Shown here piece after piece: positions 452-17,613 of a DNA stretch of 64,000 nt (its first letter is position 1; each line of letters begins with the position of its first letter). The notes under the pieces are model-generated. The model made no database searches, was not told the DNA's origin, and worked only from the letters and a program-made list of their open reading frames with translations. The stretch is taken from assembly GCA_040225955.1 (NCBI GenBank), contig JBECUL010000006.1:1-64000 (forward strand), in the 5' to 3' direction. Source of the DNA: Candidatus Asgardarchaeum abyssi (lineage in GTDB: Archaea; Asgardarchaeota; Asgardarchaeia; Asgardarchaeales; Asgardarchaeaceae). Both the position numbers and the translations under genes were made by a program.

Positions 452-1432
452 ATGATAAACCTTGAACTCAATAAAAAGAGCTTTAAGCTTTGTAACAAGC
501 TTATTAAAGAATCAAGAAAATTAAACATTGGAACACTCTCTCTAAGGAATGATGCGAAAATAATAGACTGTGGGATAAATCATATTGGTGGCTTCGAAGC
601 TGCTAAAATTGTAACTGAAATAGCACTTGGTGGTCTGGCTGAAGCAGAAATTCATACTAAAATGTATGATAGTGTAAAATTAAAAGAAATTACAGTTAAA
701 ATCAAATACCCCGCTATAGCTACACTTTGCTCACAAGCAGCATTTCCAATATACTCAGATCAAAAAACTCAATTTTATATCTGCGGACCCGGGAGAGCCC
801 TCTTTCGCTTGCCAAGGGAGATATTTGATTTTTTAAACTATTATGAAGACTCGGATGTTGCAGTTTTCATAATTCAAGATAATGAATTCCCTTCTCTGCA
901 ATTTGTTGAAAGAATCGTGAGAGATATAAAAGTGAATCCGGAAAATCTTTGTTTTATTATAACGCCAGTACCCAGTATTTGTGGTAATACACAAGTATGT
1001 GCTAAAGCTGTAGAATCCGTAATTTTCACTCTGTACCAAGCTTTTAAATGGGATATCCGTAAAATATCCTATGCTGAGGGAGTAACACCTATAGTTCCTT
1101 CTTATCAAAGTGAAAGAGGATCACAAGGAGGCTCAACACCAGACGATTTTATATTCTATGGGAGCTCCGTTAAGCTTCTCGTTGATGACATCTCTGAAAT
1201 TGAGGATATCGCACCAAGTCTCACTTTTAAGTCAACAAAGGTGTATGGTAAGACATTCCTTGAAATACTAAAAGAGGCAAATGGCGATGTAAGAAATATT
1301 GACGGCTACCCTCATGTATTCCTCCCCGCAGAAATAATAATCACGGATAAAAATGGAAATACCATAAAATACGGTAGTGTAGAAGTTAAACGAATTGCCT
1401 CAATGGCAAAAACATTAATTAAATCAATATAA
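452..1432 (+). CDS. Divergent methenyltetrahydromethanopterin cyclohydrolase (Mch)-like protein
   Basis: IIDCGI..GGFEA, EIALGGL, GPGRAL, YGKTF and length fit the Mch family; several conserved motifs are altered (see findings). RBS GGTGAG upstream. Confidence 0.75.
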   Translation: MINLELNKKSFKLCNKLIKESRKLNIGTLSLRNDAKIIDCGINHIGGFEAAKIVTEIALGGLAEAEIHTKMYDSVKLKEITVKIKYPAIATLCSQAAFPIYSDQKTQFYICGPGRALFRLPREIFDFLNYYEDSDVAVFIIQDNEFPSLQFVERIVRDIKVNPENLCFIITPVPSICGNTQVCAKAVESVIFTLYQAFKWDIRKISYAEGVTPIVPSYQSERGSQGGSTPDDFIFYGSSVKLLVDDISEIEDIAPSLTFKSTKVYGKTFLEILKEANGDVRNIDGYPHVFLPAEIIITDKNGNTIKYGSVEVKRIASMAKTLIKSI

Positions 1433-2788
1433 GAAAAGGTTCTTAGGGACATCCCATCTTTGTTTTCTCTCATTCCAAAATGGTACAGTTTCGAGCAATC
1501 CCTTACTTCCAATATTGTAGTATCGCATAATTATTTTAATATTATCACAAATTCCATCTAAGAGGGCTTTTATTCGAAAAACGGTTTCATCTAATTTATC
1601 TGGTGGTACTTCGAGAAAAGCAATAATTCCACTATTGGTTAGTGTCATGAAATAAAGTGGGAAGAAATTACCGAAAAATCTACTTATTATGTTGCTTAGA
1701 GAGTCAATTTCATCTTCTGGAAAATCTAAAATTATCAATATTGAGCTTGTGAGACCTATATTATTGAGCCGTGCATATGGTTTTAAAGCAGTGTTAAAGA
1801 AAATCTTACGCTTTCTTGAAATTTCTTGAATGGTCACATCATAACCTAATCTTAACATAGTCTCTCTGATTTCACTTAAGGTCATCCTAGCTTTATTCAT
1901 CAAAAGAAATAACAATGTTAAATCCTTTTGCTTAAGTGCGAAATTGAATGAGCAATGCTTATAGTAAAGGAAATCTGGAGGAGAATACAAATTGTAATTC
2001 TCCTTCAAAAAATTAAATGAATAGACCATTTTAAGGGAATCAAAATACCAATTAGTGCCATCATAAAAATCTAAATTGACTCCATAAGTTATTGCCTTTT
2101 GTTCGTATAGGTCAAAATATGAAATAATATGTTTTTGATAGAGAGAGATTATGAACTTCTTAAATTTATTAATTACACTTTTATTGTTCGGAATATAAAA
2201 AACAGCCCAGCCACTAATAAGACCTCTTATCTCTGTAAAAACGTCTGTATTTATATTCATAGTAAAAGGAGTATCTATCTTATTTTTTAAAATCGAGACC
2301 TTATCTTTTTCAACAACAAAATATAAGAAAAAGCGTTTCATCTTTATACAAAAAGGATTTAAGAAGCTTGCGAAGTGAATTTTAAACCATTCAGAAACCT
2401 CTGTAAATTTTCTTTTTGCTGTAGGTTTGCTAATTTTCATTTTAAAAGCAAGATCTTTATATGAGATTAATGGATTTGACACTATAATTTTTAGAATATT
2501 CATATGTTCAAGTGTTACTTTTGGTTTTTCTCTAAAAAGGTCTGAAAATAAATTGATTATTAGATTAGCATCTCTTATTTTGTACCTTTTAATCCCTTTT
2601 AATCTTTGAATGATTTCAAATGCTCTCGATGAAGAGTAAGAAAAACTATCTGGTGTTATATATTTTATGTATTTGGGAACTGTTACTATTTTTCGTTGAA
2701 AAATATATTGCTTGAGAAGGCTATATAGCTCCTTAACAGCAGGATCGTCCACCGGTGGTATAAATATAGAGTCATTAACATGATGCAT
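1424..2788 (-). CDS. Transcriptional regulator with two wHTH/Lrp-AsnC-like modules (paralogue of 16180..17613)
   Basis: HTH-like NPLISYKDLAFKMKISKPTAKRKF and second KARMTLSEIRETMLRLGYDVTIQEISRK, each followed by an alpha/beta domain; shares IKRY, GWA.F.IP, N.DFYDG..W.FD and FW.E.KQRW with 16180..17613. Confidence 0.7.
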   Translation of the reverse strand: MHHVNDSIFIPPVDDPAVKELYSLLKQYIFQRKIVTVPKYIKYITPDSFSYSSSRAFEIIQRLKGIKRYKIRDANLIINLFSDLFREKPKVTLEHMNILKIIVSNPLISYKDLAFKMKISKPTAKRKFTEVSEWFKIHFASFLNPFCIKMKRFFLYFVVEKDKVSILKNKIDTPFTMNINTDVFTEIRGLISGWAVFYIPNNKSVINKFKKFIISLYQKHIISYFDLYEQKAITYGVNLDFYDGTNWYFDSLKMVYSFNFLKENYNLYSPPDFLYYKHCSFNFALKQKDLTLLFLLMNKARMTLSEIRETMLRLGYDVTIQEISRKRKIFFNTALKPYARLNNIGLTSSILIILDFPEDEIDSLSNIISRFFGNFFPLYFMTLTNSGIIAFLEVPPDKLDETVFRIKALLDGICDNIKIIMRYYNIGSKGLLETVPFWNERKQRWDVPKNLFLY

Positions 2789-3030: not shown

Positions 3031-3186
3031 ATGAATGAGAAAGTATTGAAGACATTATATTTAGTATATAAATATAGAGTGCTAATAATCCTAGGCATAG
3101 TCCTTGTATTATCAATGCTAGGTATCGTAGCCCCAACTATTGCAGATGAGGGATGTCCTCCAAATCCTGAACCTATCAGTGGTTAA
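3031..3186 (+). CDS. Small secreted peptide precursor, 51 aa (MNEKVLKTLYLVYKYRVLIILGIVLVLSMLGIVAPTIA-DEGCPPNPEPISG)
   Basis: RBS GGTGA at 3021-3025, ATG 3031, TAA 3184-3186; basic n-region, hydrophobic h-region, TIA|D site; paralogue at 15864..16016. Below the ORF-track cutoff. Confidence 0.8.
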   Translation: MNEKVLKTLYLVYKYRVLIILGIVLVLSMLGIVAPTIADEGCPPNPEPISG

Positions 3187-3208: not shown

Positions 3209-3430
3209 ATGGTACTCATAGAGAAACCTATAGTGTCTAGTAGGCAGGTAATTGGTCCTGATAGTGAATTGGATGAGCATAGGGCACTCGCCCTATTCTA
3301 TACGCTTCTTGAGAACACGTTGATAAAAATTCTTCCACCTGGGAACTTGGAAATAGCGTACGACACTGGAATTATTAAGGTTCTAATACACAAAAATGAT
3401 AAAGGTGAGGTTGTCCTTGAAGTCTATTGA
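3209..3430 (+). CDS. Small hypothetical protein (73 aa), probable homologue of 15604..15843
   Basis: RBS GGAGG upstream; last 49 aa align without gaps to the 15604 ORF (shared R, L, AY, K, N..G.V). Confidence 0.7.
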   Translation: MVLIEKPIVSSRQVIGPDSELDEHRALALFYTLLENTLIKILPPGNLEIAYDTGIIKVLIHKNDKGEVVLEVY

Positions 3431-13986: not shown

Positions 13987-14694
13987 GTGAAAAATATGAA
14001 ATGTCCCAAAAAAGTATCCGCGATTATAATCATGTTGATAACTTTAAGTTTGCTCACTCAACCTGTAGCTGTATTTGGCAATAATATAGAATGGGGCGTA
14101 AAAGAAGGTGATACGATCACATGGACTGTTGTCATAGCTCCGAATACTACATTTTGGTGGTGGGACCCAGTTACTGGTCTCGTAAAGGTTAAGGTGAACG
14201 AAGGGGACATAATGGAGTATAACATTACAAAAATAGACGATGATACACTATACGGTGATTTTAAGATAGGGAATCTAACAGTAGCGAATGTAACAACAGA
14301 TACTATTGGCATGAATCTCGTCTTTGGATTATGGCCATTTATCACAGGTCCTGTTGTTAAACCAGATTGGCAGAATATAACATCTAAGGCTGAGGACTGT
14401 AATGTTAAGACAATAGAAGAAAGTAACTTTGAATGGTATCTTGGGCTACCAAGAAATGTGATAACATTTGCGAATGAGACAGATAGCGGAGCATTTAGGC
14501 TTGTGTATGAGAAAAGTACAGGAGTTATGCTTTATGGCTATGGAAGATTTGGAAAATATGAATTGGGTGTGGAGATCAAGTCAACAACAGTATCTCTTGG
14601 TATTAGCGAAATCCTCTATATTGTCGTTGGTGTCCCAATAATTGTAATAATAGCTATAGTTATAGCAAGTATGTTTATTAAGAAAAAAGAATAA
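13987..14694 (+). CDS. Secreted/surface protein with signal peptide and C-terminal TM anchor
   Basis: N-terminal signal peptide, WGVKEGD motif, N-x-T sequons, C-terminal TM followed by KKKE. Confidence 0.75.
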   Translation: MKNMKCPKKVSAIIIMLITLSLLTQPVAVFGNNIEWGVKEGDTITWTVVIAPNTTFWWWDPVTGLVKVKVNEGDIMEYNITKIDDDTLYGDFKIGNLTVANVTTDTIGMNLVFGLWPFITGPVVKPDWQNITSKAEDCNVKTIEESNFEWYLGLPRNVITFANETDSGAFRLVYEKSTGVMLYGYGRFGKYELGVEIKSTTVSLGISEILYIVVGVPIIVIIAIVIASMFIKKKE

Positions 14695-15487
14695 CTCCTC
14701 TATTTTTTCTTAAAATAAGAAGAAGCGCAGGAGTTTTTTTATCATGTGAGAATACAGGACCAAAACTTTCTTTTTTTATAAAAGTAAACCCCACTTTTTC
14801 TAAAATTCCCATAAACTCTTCAAAATTTAGTCCAACTTGGGGTTCATAAAAGAGTATTCTTCCGTTTGGCTTTAAAACACGCCAATTTTCTCTTAAAAGC
14901 ACTTCCCATGATTTTCTATCAATATCATGAAACGCCCATACATATGTAACATAATCAAAATACCCATCTGGAAATGGTAGTTTCTTAGATGACCTAATAG
15001 AAACAAGTTTAAATCTATCACCCAGCTTATAAAGCTCTTTAAATTTCAAACCAACATTAATTCTCTGCTCATCAATGTCTACACCTATATAGGTACATTT
15101 CTTCTTATTTACTAATATAACTCCCAGATAGCCATAGCCGCATCCTATATCAAGTACTGTTGTCTTTTCCTTTATGTACTTACTAACGATAGCTTCACGT
15201 TCGCTTAGATAAATTATATGTGATTTAAAGTCATCTATATTACCGCCAAATCTTAACATACCACTAATAATCGCTAGAGAGCCATATAGAAAGCCAAAAT
15301 CACTTAAGAATTTATATAGCTCCTCATCAGTGTTAAAGATTTTCTTTGCAAGATTTATAAAATCTAAAGTTTTCTTCCTTAAGAAATTTGCCTCGCCCAT
15401 TCTTAAACCTCGTATAGTTGTAACTTTATGGGAAGTGGAATCTTCATAATTATTTAGGAGATATACTTCTTCATTACTATTATACAA
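14678..15487 (-). CDS. Class I SAM-dependent methyltransferase (likely start 15400)
   Basis: VLDIGCGYG, GVDID, LPFPDGYFD, RVLKPNG motifs. Confidence 0.88.
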   Translation of the reverse strand: MYNSNEEVYLLNNYEDSTSHKVTTIRGLRMGEANFLRKKTLDFINLAKKIFNTDEELYKFLSDFGFLYGSLAIISGMLRFGGNIDDFKSHIIYLSEREAIVSKYIKEKTTVLDIGCGYGYLGVILVNKKKCTYIGVDIDEQRINVGLKFKELYKLGDRFKLVSIRSSKKLPFPDGYFDYVTYVWAFHDIDRKSWEVLLRENWRVLKPNGRILFYEPQVGLNFEEFMGILEKVGFTFIKKESFGPVFSHDKKTPALLLILRKNRGVILFS

Positions 15488-15603: not shown

Positions 15604-15843
15604 TCAGAGTTCATAGATTTTTACTTTTCCCTGCTCATTGAAAACTTCGAACTCTTTATTGTCTATAACTATGTACGCTTTTACTTTTGCGTTTGTCAAT
15701 ATCTTAGACTTTACTATATCGGCAAAGAGTTCAAAAGCAGCACCAATAGTCCTAATATCCTCATCATAAAATTTAGTAACATCTTCTATTTTTATCTTCT
15801 CAGTATAAAATTCTCTATAAAGAGAGGAAAGAAAGGTTCTCAT
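15604..15843 (-). CDS. Small hypothetical protein (79 aa), probable homologue of 3209..3430
   Basis: RBS GGTGA then ATG at 15843 (the track uses GTG 15852); ungapped C-terminal alignment with the 3209 ORF. Confidence 0.7.
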   Translation of the reverse strand: MRTFLSSLYREFYTEKIKIEDVTKFYDEDIRTIGAAFELFADIVKSKILTNAKVKAYIVIDNKEFEVFNEQGKVKIYEL

Positions 15844-15863: not shown

Positions 15864-16016
15864 TTACCCATCAATAGGAACTGGTATATCACCATTAGGT
15901 GGATCAGCAATGATTATTTGAAGGCCAAAATGCATGAGAATGGCATATAGTAGTAATAAACTCAATACCACAGCAAATTTGTGTTTTGCTATCCAACTTA
16001 AGATTTTCCAAATCAT
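15864..16016 (-). CDS. Small secreted peptide precursor, 50 aa (MIWKILSWIAKHKFAVVLSLLLLYAILMHFGLQIIIA-DPPNGDIPVPIDG)
   Basis: RBS GGTGA (complement of 16023-16027), ATG 16016, TAA 15864-15866; signal-peptide architecture and IA|D...PxPIxG shared with 3031..3186. Not in the ORF track. Confidence 0.8.
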   Translation of the reverse strand: MIWKILSWIAKHKFAVVLSLLLLYAILMHFGLQIIIADPPNGDIPVPIDG

Positions 16017-16179
16017 ACTTAGTCACCACTAGATATATATGGAGAAATCTTTTTTATTGCAAGAAAGATAAGCCTCAAGAGAGCTAATTTTTGATAATTA
16101 AAGAATAAGAAGGAGTATCCACGAGAATAAAATGCTTTTAATGAACATTTTTCAGAAATAAAAAAAGAGAGATTTTTGA

Positions 16180-17613
16180 ATGATAAAATTTATATCCAAT
16201 GATAGGAATATTTCTCCTAAAATGAAAGAGGGAGGAAAAATATCTCTTAGGGATTTATTAACTCCACCGATTAAAGATAAAGAGGTTATTGAATGGTACA
16301 AATTAATAGAGATTTATTTTAAAATCCTTAGTGGTGAGTCTGTGGAATATCCGAAGTTTAAATATGTTACTGTTAATCCAAAATATATTTTAAAAACAAA
16401 AGAGCAAGAGGAAAAGATAATACATAGATTAAGGCTAATAAAGAGGTATCGCCTCACAGATCCAATTGTGATAACAAAAATAATAAAATCCGCTTTTGAT
16501 ACTCCAAAGTATAAGTTAGACAGTGATGAACTCAAATTTTTAAAAACTTTATTAGGCAATCCTAATGATAAAATCAACAAAATTGCGAAAAAGGCGAAGA
16601 TACCAGTTAGTACTGCATATAGAATATATAAAAAGATGAAAAACGTAATTCTTCTGCGGAGATTTGGATATCCCGATCTATCTAGATTTAGACTTAAGCA
16701 TTTCGTAGTAGTTTTCAAGTTCTATGAGGATAAAATGAATCTTCTGAGACGAAAAATGCCACTAAATCCCTTTCTTTTCACTTTTAATGTAGATGCTATT
16801 AATGTCTATGATGGTAAGGCTTTTGGATGGGCTTCATTTAGAATACCTGATTCTAAAAAGGTATTGAGGGAGTTTAATGATTGGCTTGTCTCTTTCAAAA
16901 CGGAGCTTGGTGTGTTCCCGGACGAGGAGAGCTGGGAGGTTATTGAAGCAAAACGGTTTATTTTTTCAGCCAATATCGATTTTTATGACGGAGAAAAATG
17001 GGTGTTTGATGAGACTCTTATGAGTGTGGGTCTCTTAAAATTTGTAGAAAAATTTGACATTTATATAAATAAACCAATAATAAATATTGAATTCAACAGT
17101 AAACCGATAAGATTTGATAAAATAGATTTAATTCTTCTTGAGTTGCTTCAGAAAGACTATTTCTATAAGTTGTCTTCTGCATGTAATATCTTAGAAAAAG
17201 AAGGCTATATAAGAAGCGAAAAAAACATATCTAGGCGTTTTGAAAGGCTGAGAAACTATGTTAAGCCAGGTGTTGTTTTTGCAGGACTTAATCTAGCGGA
17301 CTCACTAAACCTCTTCATATCAACATCAGACAAAGGAACACGTGATCTTATTCATAAATTCTTGCTATACTTGCCTATTGTATATATAGTTGAGTCTAAT
17401 AGCGATATGATTATCTACATTCAGCTACCGAAAGGCACGGCCATAAAATTTCTCTACCAATTTAATGAACTGAAAAACATGGTTAATGAGTTTTTAGGCA
17501 TTGTTGTCGCATATAGTCATGGCGCAAAGATAAGAGTTAAGCTTCACGAGTTTTGGGATGAGAAAAAGCAAAGATGGATAATACCTGATGGAATAATGCA
17601 CGGAATGTATTAA
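16180..17613 (+). CDS. Transcriptional regulator with two wHTH/Lrp-AsnC-like modules (paralogue of 1424..2788)
   Basis: NPNDKINKIAKKAKIPVSTAYRIY HTH; second DKIDLILLELLQ...GYIRSEKNISRRF; shared blocks with 1424..2788. Start uncertain. Confidence 0.72.
   Translation: MIKFISNDRNISPKMKEGGKISLRDLLTPPIKDKEVIEWYKLIEIYFKILSGESVEYPKFKYVTVNPKYILKTKEQEEKIIHRLRLIKRYRLTDPIVITKIIKSAFDTPKYKLDSDELKFLKTLLGNPNDKINKIAKKAKIPVSTAYRIYKKMKNVILLRRFGYPDLSRFRLKHFVVVFKFYEDKMNLLRRKMPLNPFLFTFNVDAINVYDGKAFGWASFRIPDSKKVLREFNDWLVSFKTELGVFPDEESWEVIEAKRFIFSANIDFYDGEKWVFDETLMSVGLLKFVEKFDIYINKPIINIEFNSKPIRFDKIDLILLELLQKDYFYKLSSACNILEKEGYIRSEKNISRRFERLRNYVKPGVVFAGLNLADSLNLFISTSDKGTRDLIHKFLLYLPIVYIVESNSDMIIYIQLPKGTAIKFLYQFNELKNMVNEFLGIVVAYSHGAKIRVKLHEFWDEKKQRWIIPDGIMHGMY

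Follow-up and report, generated by a model that had tools for sequence, protein, structure and literature searches.

The window analysed here, which comprises the first 64,000 nucleotides (nt) of contig JBECUL010000006.1 of the Asgard archaeon Candidatus Asgardarchaeum abyssi, carries on its minus strand a small gene, designated peptide B, located divergently from the gene of a large protein with a predicted double Lrp/AsnC-type fold. The product seems to consist of a hydrophobic leader followed by a short proline-containing core, and the core belongs to a family of micro-peptides encoded beside such large proteins across the phylum. The elements of the locus, in window coordinates, are:

15864..16016, minus strand: peptide B gene, 50 codons plus stop (list of open reading frames (ORFs) and sequence).
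16023..16027, minus strand: GGTGA, Shine-Dalgarno (SD)-like, 6 nt 5′ of the peptide B ATG (sequence).
15906..16016, minus strand: predicted leader, residues 1-37, with a basic n-region, an h-region and a c-region ending in I-I-A (read from the sequence).
15867..15905, minus strand: predicted mature core DPPNGDIPVPIDG, residues 38-50, with the C-terminal P-x-P-x(1-3) tail (leaderless homologues of the same length class and with the same D-P start).
16017..16179, no strand: shared divergent promoter region, AT-rich, 163 nt, with the TATA-like elements ATAAAAAA and ATATATAT upstream of the peptide B gene (elements read by eye).
16180..17613, plus strand: double Lrp/AsnC-type protein B, 477 amino acids (aa), divergent from peptide B (helix-turn-helix (HTH) matches, AlphaFold2 (AF2) model and Foldseek).
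15604..15843, minus strand: companion B, 79 aa, with its own GGTGA, 20 nt 3′ of the peptide B stop (alignment A4, AF2).

Peptide B is a real gene. As the first-pass annotation of the window had stated, a minus-strand ORF of 50 aa with a GGTGA ribosome-binding site occupies positions 15864-16016; it opens at the first ATG after a stop, and the homologous mini-ORFs of other genomes are preceded by an SD of the same kind (GGTG or GGAGG). An identical 50-aa protein is already present in the public protein collection (four member sequences, from two contigs), and hence at least some gene callers predict peptide B. Used as the query of that collection, peptide B found no 5-mer-sharing relative besides itself, and Pfam and NCBIfam hold no family for it, for the companions or for the third genes found at other loci, the regulators giving HTH matches only. 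Three Lys and one His are contained in the n-region (residues 1-13), which is followed by a hydrophobic h-region of about 17 residues (24 at most when the c-region is counted in); its best 15-mer has a mean Kyte-Doolittle value of 2.79. The C-terminus is P-V-P-I-D-G and the core is acidic, so that the basic N-terminus together with the acidic tail predict an N-in/C-out topology. With a charged n-region followed by an h-region, a junction obeying the −3/−1 rule and no Pro at +1, the sequence has the features of a putative Sec class 1 signal.

A paralogous peptide gene is found in the same window, again next to a large protein and a companion:

3031..3186, plus strand: peptide A gene, 51 codons, paralogous, core DEGCPPNPEPISG (sequence and genome-wide scan).
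1424..2788, minus strand: double Lrp-type protein A, 454 aa, partner of peptide A (HTH match, paralogue of protein B).
3209..3430, plus strand: companion A, 73 aa (alignment A4).

Peptides A and B are built alike: each begins with a basic segment, continues with some 17 hydrophobic residues, a short c-region and I-A|D, and has exactly 13 residues after this junction, ending in P-x-P-I-x-G; PPN occurs in both cores at different positions. All the features that the first-pass annotation had listed as shared by the two peptides are therefore present, and the junction that it had proposed, I(−3)-I-A(−1)|D(+1) in B, fits the −3/−1 rule, as T-I-A|D in A would also do, with A|D recurring as V-L-A|D in an independent leader-bearing locus of another family (L006, described below). 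The annotation had made the relationship depend on a comparison with shuffled sequences, and by this measure the pairwise similarity is only modest: z = 6.1 for the whole-length alignment of A and B against composition-preserving shuffles, p ~0.03 for the cores alone (5/13 identities without gaps) and p ~0.01 for the leaders alone. Stronger discrimination comes from the genome. The 2.6-Mb genome was scanned in six frames for ORFs of 35-70 aa that were preceded by an SD and combined a hydrophobic 15-mer with a tail of 8-22 aa ending in P.P.{1,3}, and exactly two ORFs passed this filter for leader and P-x-P tail, namely A and B, both of them divergent from paralogous proteins of 454-477 aa. It is this genomic context, the exclusivity of the scan and the paralogy of the neighbours, that makes the resemblance of A and B more than chance. 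Proteins A and B are full-length paralogues (25% identity, E 7e-36), and at both loci the gap from the peptide stop to the companion ORF is 20-22 nt, each companion having its own SD.

A third paralogue of the large protein is located on contig 12 of this genome (G000), and there the divergent position is taken by a much shorter ORF:

L003:3129-3170 = G000:C12:34766-34807, plus strand: leaderless ORF of 13 codons, MRDDADPIDPTPF, with a GGGTGG ribosome-binding site (sequence).

Downstream of it come the genes of a companion of 75 aa and of a third protein of 131 aa, as in locus A. The genome-wide search for paralogues that had been proposed as a check thus yielded no further copy of the leader type and a third, leaderless copy that also lies beside a regulator paralogue. 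The presence of a leaderless ORF at the third paralogue changed the reading of what the unit of the family is. The genome also encodes a distant fourth paralogue of 540 aa, about 480 nt upstream of which, at the contig end, lies a possible 15-codon Pro-rich ORF without an SD, ending in Y-P-I-P-P-Y-Y (L004:18-65, minus strand = G000:C37).

Homologues of the large protein were found in 85 of the 301 genomes of the phylum that were sampled, and 39 of their loci had enough upstream sequence for a survey of mini-ORFs. Under a strict definition (an ATG or GTG ORF of 9-16 codons ending in P.P.{1,3}, on the divergent strand and 100-420 nt upstream) a mini-ORF was present at 17 of the 39 loci, the expectation from dinucleotide-preserving shuffles being 0.65 with a maximum of 5 in 200; the same test on the opposite strand gave 2 loci. 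Examples are MDPRLPPQPDPA (L029), MAPRIPPKPEPW (L023), MEPHATNPFPF (L026) and MTPYRPNPAPIV (L024). The leaderless ORFs encode 9-16 aa and often open with M-D-P, and the leader-bearing forms have A|D-P or A|D-E at the junction; the length of 13 aa and the D-P start that had been assigned to the core of B match those of its leaderless homologues. Besides A and B, a leader is found at L006 (family f14), where 31 residues ending in V-L-A|D precede DPQDPWPTG. Locus B belongs to the resulting category, the Pro-rich micro-peptide/double-Lrp cassette, which is defined in this analysis and not taken from the literature: a divergent, SD-led small ORF and a double Lrp-type gene are separated by no more than about 400 nt, the product of the ORF ends in a P-x-P-x(1-3) tail, and a companion with the motif ITP-x-T...LREIGA is encoded directly downstream.

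Two elements of the first-pass annotation do not extend to the family. It had described the conserved frame as IA|D, 13 aa and PxPIxG, but judged from the sequences the conserved element of the family is the C-terminal P-x-P-x(1-3) tail only; and 'pro-peptide' fails as a general description, the leader being a minority form in a family whose members are mostly leaderless. Since most homologous positions carry leaderless ORFs of mature-core length, often with the D-P start, the core of B appears to be the family unit and its leader an accessory. A maximum-likelihood phylogeny of the large proteins unites the three paralogues of this genome in a single clade (Shimodaira-Hasegawa-like approximate likelihood-ratio test (SH-aLRT) 96), in which A, with a leader, and the contig-12 copy (L003), without one, are sisters; leader-bearing L006 is likewise sister to leaderless L007, and three changes of leader state are needed on the tree. 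A separate observation concerns the core codons of B for P-P-N-G-D-I (15885-15902, minus strand), which read CCACCTAATGGTGATATA. This stretch is identical at 16 of 18 positions to the SD plus spacer located just 5′ of the mini-ORF of L055 (genus g11), and the SD context of locus A is similar to it as well; the likeness could be a coincidence or the trace of an in-frame fusion of an upstream leader.

The action of selection on the mini-ORF is best seen in genus g11, from which 14 loci were aligned. The TATA-like box, a 5′ untranslated region (5′UTR) of about 50 nt and the SD region are nearly invariant, with an invariant 5′UTR block, AGATTCCAGCAAACACACTCGC, between the TATA-like box and the SD. 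Within the mini-ORF the ATG, the stop, the tail's Pro codons and the frame (indel lengths are multiples of three) are all kept around a hypervariable centre that is almost wholly replaced between genomes, and pairs of near-identical peptides differ mostly by synonymous changes, as the TCT to TCA in L043/L044. A conserved hairpin, ACTGAG-loop-CTCAGT, lies directly 3′ of the mini-ORF stop (L050:1760-1840, minus strand, for instance). A search of Rfam with five loci gave no match at E up to 1, and a known riboswitch or small RNA (sRNA) was rejected for that reason.

The distribution of divergence along the chromosome indicates which gene changes together with the peptide. Two species of g11, G090 and G095, share about 9 kb of synteny over which their DNA is 90-99% identical, except for a single, sharply bounded block in which identity falls to 61-80% (L060:3343-5279 on G090:C27, compared with L059 on G095:C42). 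The block extends from just upstream of the companion start, across the mini-ORF and the intergenic region, to about 90 nt past the stop of the large gene. Accordingly, the companions of the two species are 98% identical, as are the third genes, whereas the large proteins share 71% identity and the peptides read MTPYRPNPAPIV and MDFPQQPSNPMPVT. The same grouping is found in all 14 loci, in which the large proteins are 84-95% identical where the peptides are near-identical and 67-78% identical elsewhere. Between alleles both winged HTH (wHTH) domains and the linker are the best kept parts (80-85%), and divergence is greatest in the N-terminal helical domain and in the first RAM-like domain (57-58%). 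The block and the allele grouping compose a pherotype-like pattern that supports a cognate peptide-protein pair, and they point to the large protein, not the downstream companion, as the probable partner of the peptide. The earlier suggestion that a constant frame with a variable centre marks allele-specific signals is borne out by these relatives, with their conserved flanks, hypervariable in-frame centre, conserved P-x-P end and divergent island of peptide and regulator. Near the block, G095 has an extra insertion of about 1.16 kb (L059:1984-3144).

The presumed partner in this genome, protein B, was modelled by AF2 with a predicted local distance difference test (pLDDT) of 87.9 and a predicted template modelling score (pTM) of 0.77, as an N-terminal helical region followed by two modules of wHTH plus beta-alpha-beta (RAM-like) fold. 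The best Foldseek match is NirDL (4ch7; E 2e-9, template modelling (TM) score 0.60 on the target, 9% identity), and further matches are Lrp/AsnC regulators including PH0061, ST1022 and AsnC; no tetratricopeptide repeat (TPR) proteins were returned by the Foldseek search. The model thus presents protein B as a double Lrp-type protein. In Pfam, paralogue A matches HTH_24 with 24.9 bits (cut-off 21.9) and protein B matches Mga with 21.6 bits (cut-off 21.1), with TrmB at 21.1 bits, below its cut-off of 25.6; protein B has no Lrp/AsnC-family match in Pfam and its other HTH families are below cut-off. Both recognition helices of the double-Lrp protein are basic. Four invariant aromatic residues, Trp274, Phe232, Trp459 and Trp466, mark a candidate RAM/aromatic pocket. 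A role as regulator is what the fold and the HTH match suggest. The nearest Atlas clusters are large archaeal groups of 'hypothetical proteins' with HTH_24, mostly from Thorarchaeota and with hundreds of members. The nearest homologue of regulator B, P0002 (56% identity; locus tag ACP6IS_02375, Candidatus Asgardarchaeia), is encoded on a 213-kb contig and has a near-identical counterpart in an Odinarchaeota metagenome-assembled genome (J7L07_02880); a search with the alignment of B and P0002 over genome and metagenome contigs returned no related locus, G000 being the only genome of its class in the comparison set. A search for operators in the three intergenic regions of this genome gave only AT-rich low-complexity repeats and no convincing palindrome.

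The companions of 19 loci constitute one family (alignment A4), characterized by a near-invariant Arg and a helix of the I-T-P-x-T...L-R-E-I-G-A type, with pairwise identities of 7-27%. BLASTP gave no alignment between companions A and B, and their homology is visible only in the multiple alignment A4. The AF2 model of companion B has a beta-alpha-beta3 arrangement (pLDDT 62) with weak roadblock/LC7-like matches (Z ~5), including roadblock structures from Odinarchaeota and Prometheoarchaeum; a roadblock-like nature of the companion is to be taken as a lead only. Beyond companion B lies a gene for a 269-aa S-adenosylmethionine (SAM)-dependent methyltransferase that is extended at its N-terminus by about 100 residues (14678-15487, minus strand). 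Locus B is without the third gene of about 130 aa that loci A and contig 12 have in the position of the methyltransferase. In family f12 (L010:3150-3190, L011:3165-3200, L009:1067-1125) an 11-codon Pro/Gly-rich mini-ORF stops inside or at the companion start codon (CCATGGTAG, for example), which suggests translational coupling. Tandem pairs of double-Lrp genes on the same strand, and clusters of at least four paralogues within about 10-14 kb, are also found in genus g11 and family f12 (L012, L018, L020, L022, L036; G042:C23:36535-50477), some of the genes being without a mini-ORF under the strict definition.

It is proposed, with moderate confidence, that peptide B carries an export tag and belongs to a family of proline-rich micro-peptides spread across the Asgard archaea, and that its core is exported, cleaved and used as the ligand of the double-Lrp protein. 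The 37 N-terminal residues would act as a Sec-type signal sequence inserted N-in/C-out, leaving the acidic, P-x-P-tailed core of 13 residues outside the cell, where it would most likely be cut after I-I-A by the archaeal signal peptidase I. The core would then be the functional unit, paired with the double Lrp/AsnC-type protein encoded at 16180-17613 as its cognate partner and most likely as its ligand; from these features we infer release of the core, its binding and sensing by that protein, and a transcriptional output: once the peptide had been taken up again, or by a different route, the protein would regulate the operon of peptide and companion as well as other targets. The genome encodes an archaeal signal peptidase I (TIGR02228 match at G000:C7:19117-19572, 114 bits, above the cut-off) and two oligopeptide transporters of the OPT family, which could provide a route for re-import. 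That leader-bearing and leaderless peptides can serve one receptor superfamily has a precedent in Firmicutes, in which both Sec-led pro-peptides and leaderless peptides signal to cytosolic receptors (PMC10518010). Signals of the archaeosortase or type IV pilin type were also considered for the leader and rejected, the hydrophobic segment being N-terminal with an A|D junction and not C-terminal or of the K/R-G type.

Several points weigh against the proposal. The evidence of the island comes from one close genome pair of another Asgard family and from related genomes, and the peptide could simply have followed the regulator through physical linkage. The best structural match of the neighbour is an enzyme, the siroheme decarboxylase NirDL, which has a tandem Lrp fold. 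A cytosolic receptor requires re-import of the peptide, and neither an Opp-type binding protein (SBP_bac_5) nor CstA was found in this genome, which is 93% complete. The hydrophobic stretch of 17, up to 24, residues would be long enough for an uncleaved signal anchor. Finally, it is unexplained how the same job would be done by leaderless cytoplasmic and Sec-exported forms.

In the first alternative, which we consider improbable, peptide B would be an uncleaved small membrane protein, whose signal anchor tethers the 13-residue tail outside as a surface tag, a tethered ligand, a contact-dependent cue or an anchor for the companion. Signal peptides seldom have a hydrophobic segment as long as 17-24 residues, an N-in/C-out orientation is expected from the charges, cleavage is itself predicted from sequence, and the peptide is closely co-transcribed with the companion, at a spacing of 20 nt. 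However, an A|D junction obeying the −3/−1 rule is common to three independent leaders, the functional unit of most relatives would be a free 9-16-mer without any anchor, and the genome has a signal peptidase I gene.

Rather less probable is a function in cis, in which the peptide would have no role of its own and the mini-ORF would be a leader ORF whose proline-rich tail (P-x-P or PP) stalls the ribosome, dependent on aIF5A, and so sets the translation or transcription of the companion. Its position as first ORF of the companion operon agrees with this idea, as do the overlap of its stop with the companion ATG in f12, the conserved hairpin after the stop in g11 and the location of the conserved portion, the C-terminal P-x-P, right before the stop. 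Peptide B moreover contains D-P-P-N, a kind of motif known to need EF-P/eIF5A. Against it, the centre of the ORF is hypervariable and changes together with the regulator, not with the companion that it would control, and a pure stalling element would have no use for an export leader of 31-38 residues, gained repeatedly; the spacing from stop to companion start varies from overlap to 163 nt, and companion B has its own SD. A force sensor of the SecM/MifM/VemP type was excluded by geometry: the ribosome exit tunnel holds about 30-40 residues, and only 13 residues follow the hydrophobic segment of B.

Slightly behind it, and also unlikely, comes the possibility that the double Lrp-fold protein is an enzyme that modifies or processes the peptide, in the manner of ribosomally synthesized and post-translationally modified peptides (RiPPs), so that co-divergence would reflect recognition of a substrate. 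NirDL, the best structural match, and AhbAB use the fold for catalysis, and the partner that co-diverges with the peptide at known pherotype loci is sometimes a processing enzyme (ComQ, AgrB), a precedent which counts in favour of this explanation. Opposed to it are the identity of only 9% to NirDL, the above-cut-off HTH_24 match of paralogue A, the basic recognition helices in HTH domains that are the best kept between alleles, the absence of any other conserved modifying enzyme in the cassette, and the size of the leaderless 10-mers, too short for the leader recognition typical of RiPPs. That the ORF is no gene and arose by chance in AT-rich intergenic DNA is very improbable. In favour of chance, the ORF is short and lacks a Pfam family and 5-mer-sharing relatives in the protein collection; but it has an SD and Pro-/Gly-rich codons that are unexpected in DNA of 34% GC, it is with A the sole genome-wide match of the filter, and other Asgard families keep a mini-ORF at this place in the cassette, far more often than shuffled sequences do.

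A broader reading, held only tentatively, is that communication by peptide plus receptor is native to Asgard archaea, with P-x-P peptides, either Sec-exported like B or leaderless, sensed through the RAM domains of cognate double Lrp-type regulators, in pherotype-like classes, and with three private channels in this genome (A, B and contig 12). If the cassette is such a system, it would be the first quorum or kin signalling by ribosomal peptides known in Archaea, a domain in which, to our knowledge, peptide signals of ribosomal origin that have their own receptor are not known. Peptides would then join the ligands of the Lrp/AsnC fold as a class of their own, communication between cells by peptides would reach the prokaryotes most closely related to eukaryotes, and the expanded set of large 'hypothetical' HTH proteins in Asgard genomes would be explained. 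Peptide B is especially useful in this respect because its export leader predicts an extracellular product and its 13-mer can be synthesized. Even if the signalling interpretation is wrong, genes of 9-16 codons under selection are being systematically missed by archaeal annotation. A full-text literature search found no description of the cassette, and the mini-ORF/double-Lrp family, undescribed in the literature found, appears as a candidate for archaeal peptide signalling.

Comparison with known systems locates the cassette between several of them. Arrest peptides and upstream ORFs (uORFs), such as TnaC, SecM, MifM and Pro-rich eukaryotic uORFs, also are short first ORFs of an operon with a conserved Pro-containing end near the stop and, as in some lineages here, an overlap with the next start; the cassette differs from them in its hypervariable centre, its co-divergence with the divergent regulator, its variable spacing and the repeated gain of an export leader. 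With the Lrp/AsnC (feast/famine) proteins and NirDL/AhbAB the neighbour shares two wHTH plus RAM modules in one chain. RAM domains bind the effectors of the Lrp/AsnC family, which as far as is known respond to amino acids or to small molecules of other kinds, and in NirDL to tetrapyrroles; we know of no gene-encoded peptide effector described for this fold, and none was found in the literature. As in the pherotype loci comQXP of Bacillus and agrBDC of Staphylococcus, a bounded hypervariable block of peptide and partner lies within conserved flanks (G090 and G095), though the partner here is a soluble double-Lrp protein instead of a membrane kinase or processing enzyme, and the comparison comes from one close genome pair.

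The closest likenesses in layout are with the peptide systems of Gram-positive bacteria and their phages. In the leaderless communication peptides (LCP) of Firmicutes, exemplified by RopB-SIP (PMC10518010), ultra-small ORFs that encode the mature-length peptide lie beside the putative receptor and are missed by gene callers, as occurs with most relatives of B; L003:3129-3170 is among the relatives that are leaderless in the same sense, in contrast to B with its 37-residue leader, and the receptor families are unrelated. In the RRNPP(A) systems (Rap-Phr, NprR-NprX, PlcR-PapR, Rgg-SHP and AimR-AimP, from Bacillota and phages) a tiny peptide gene likewise adjoins that of a cytosolic HTH protein, the peptide has a Sec-type leader and a short C-terminal active core, and peptide and receptor diversify jointly into specificity types. 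The differences are the archaeal host, a receptor fold of tandem wHTH plus RAM (Lrp/AsnC) in place of TPR, a longer (9-16 aa), acidic and proline-rich core with the fixed P-x-P tail, the conserved extra genes 3′ of the peptide (the roadblock-like companion and the third gene), and the absence of an Opp-type importer among the genes found. The cassette resembles the RRNPP(A) and LCP families in layout and is a member of neither.
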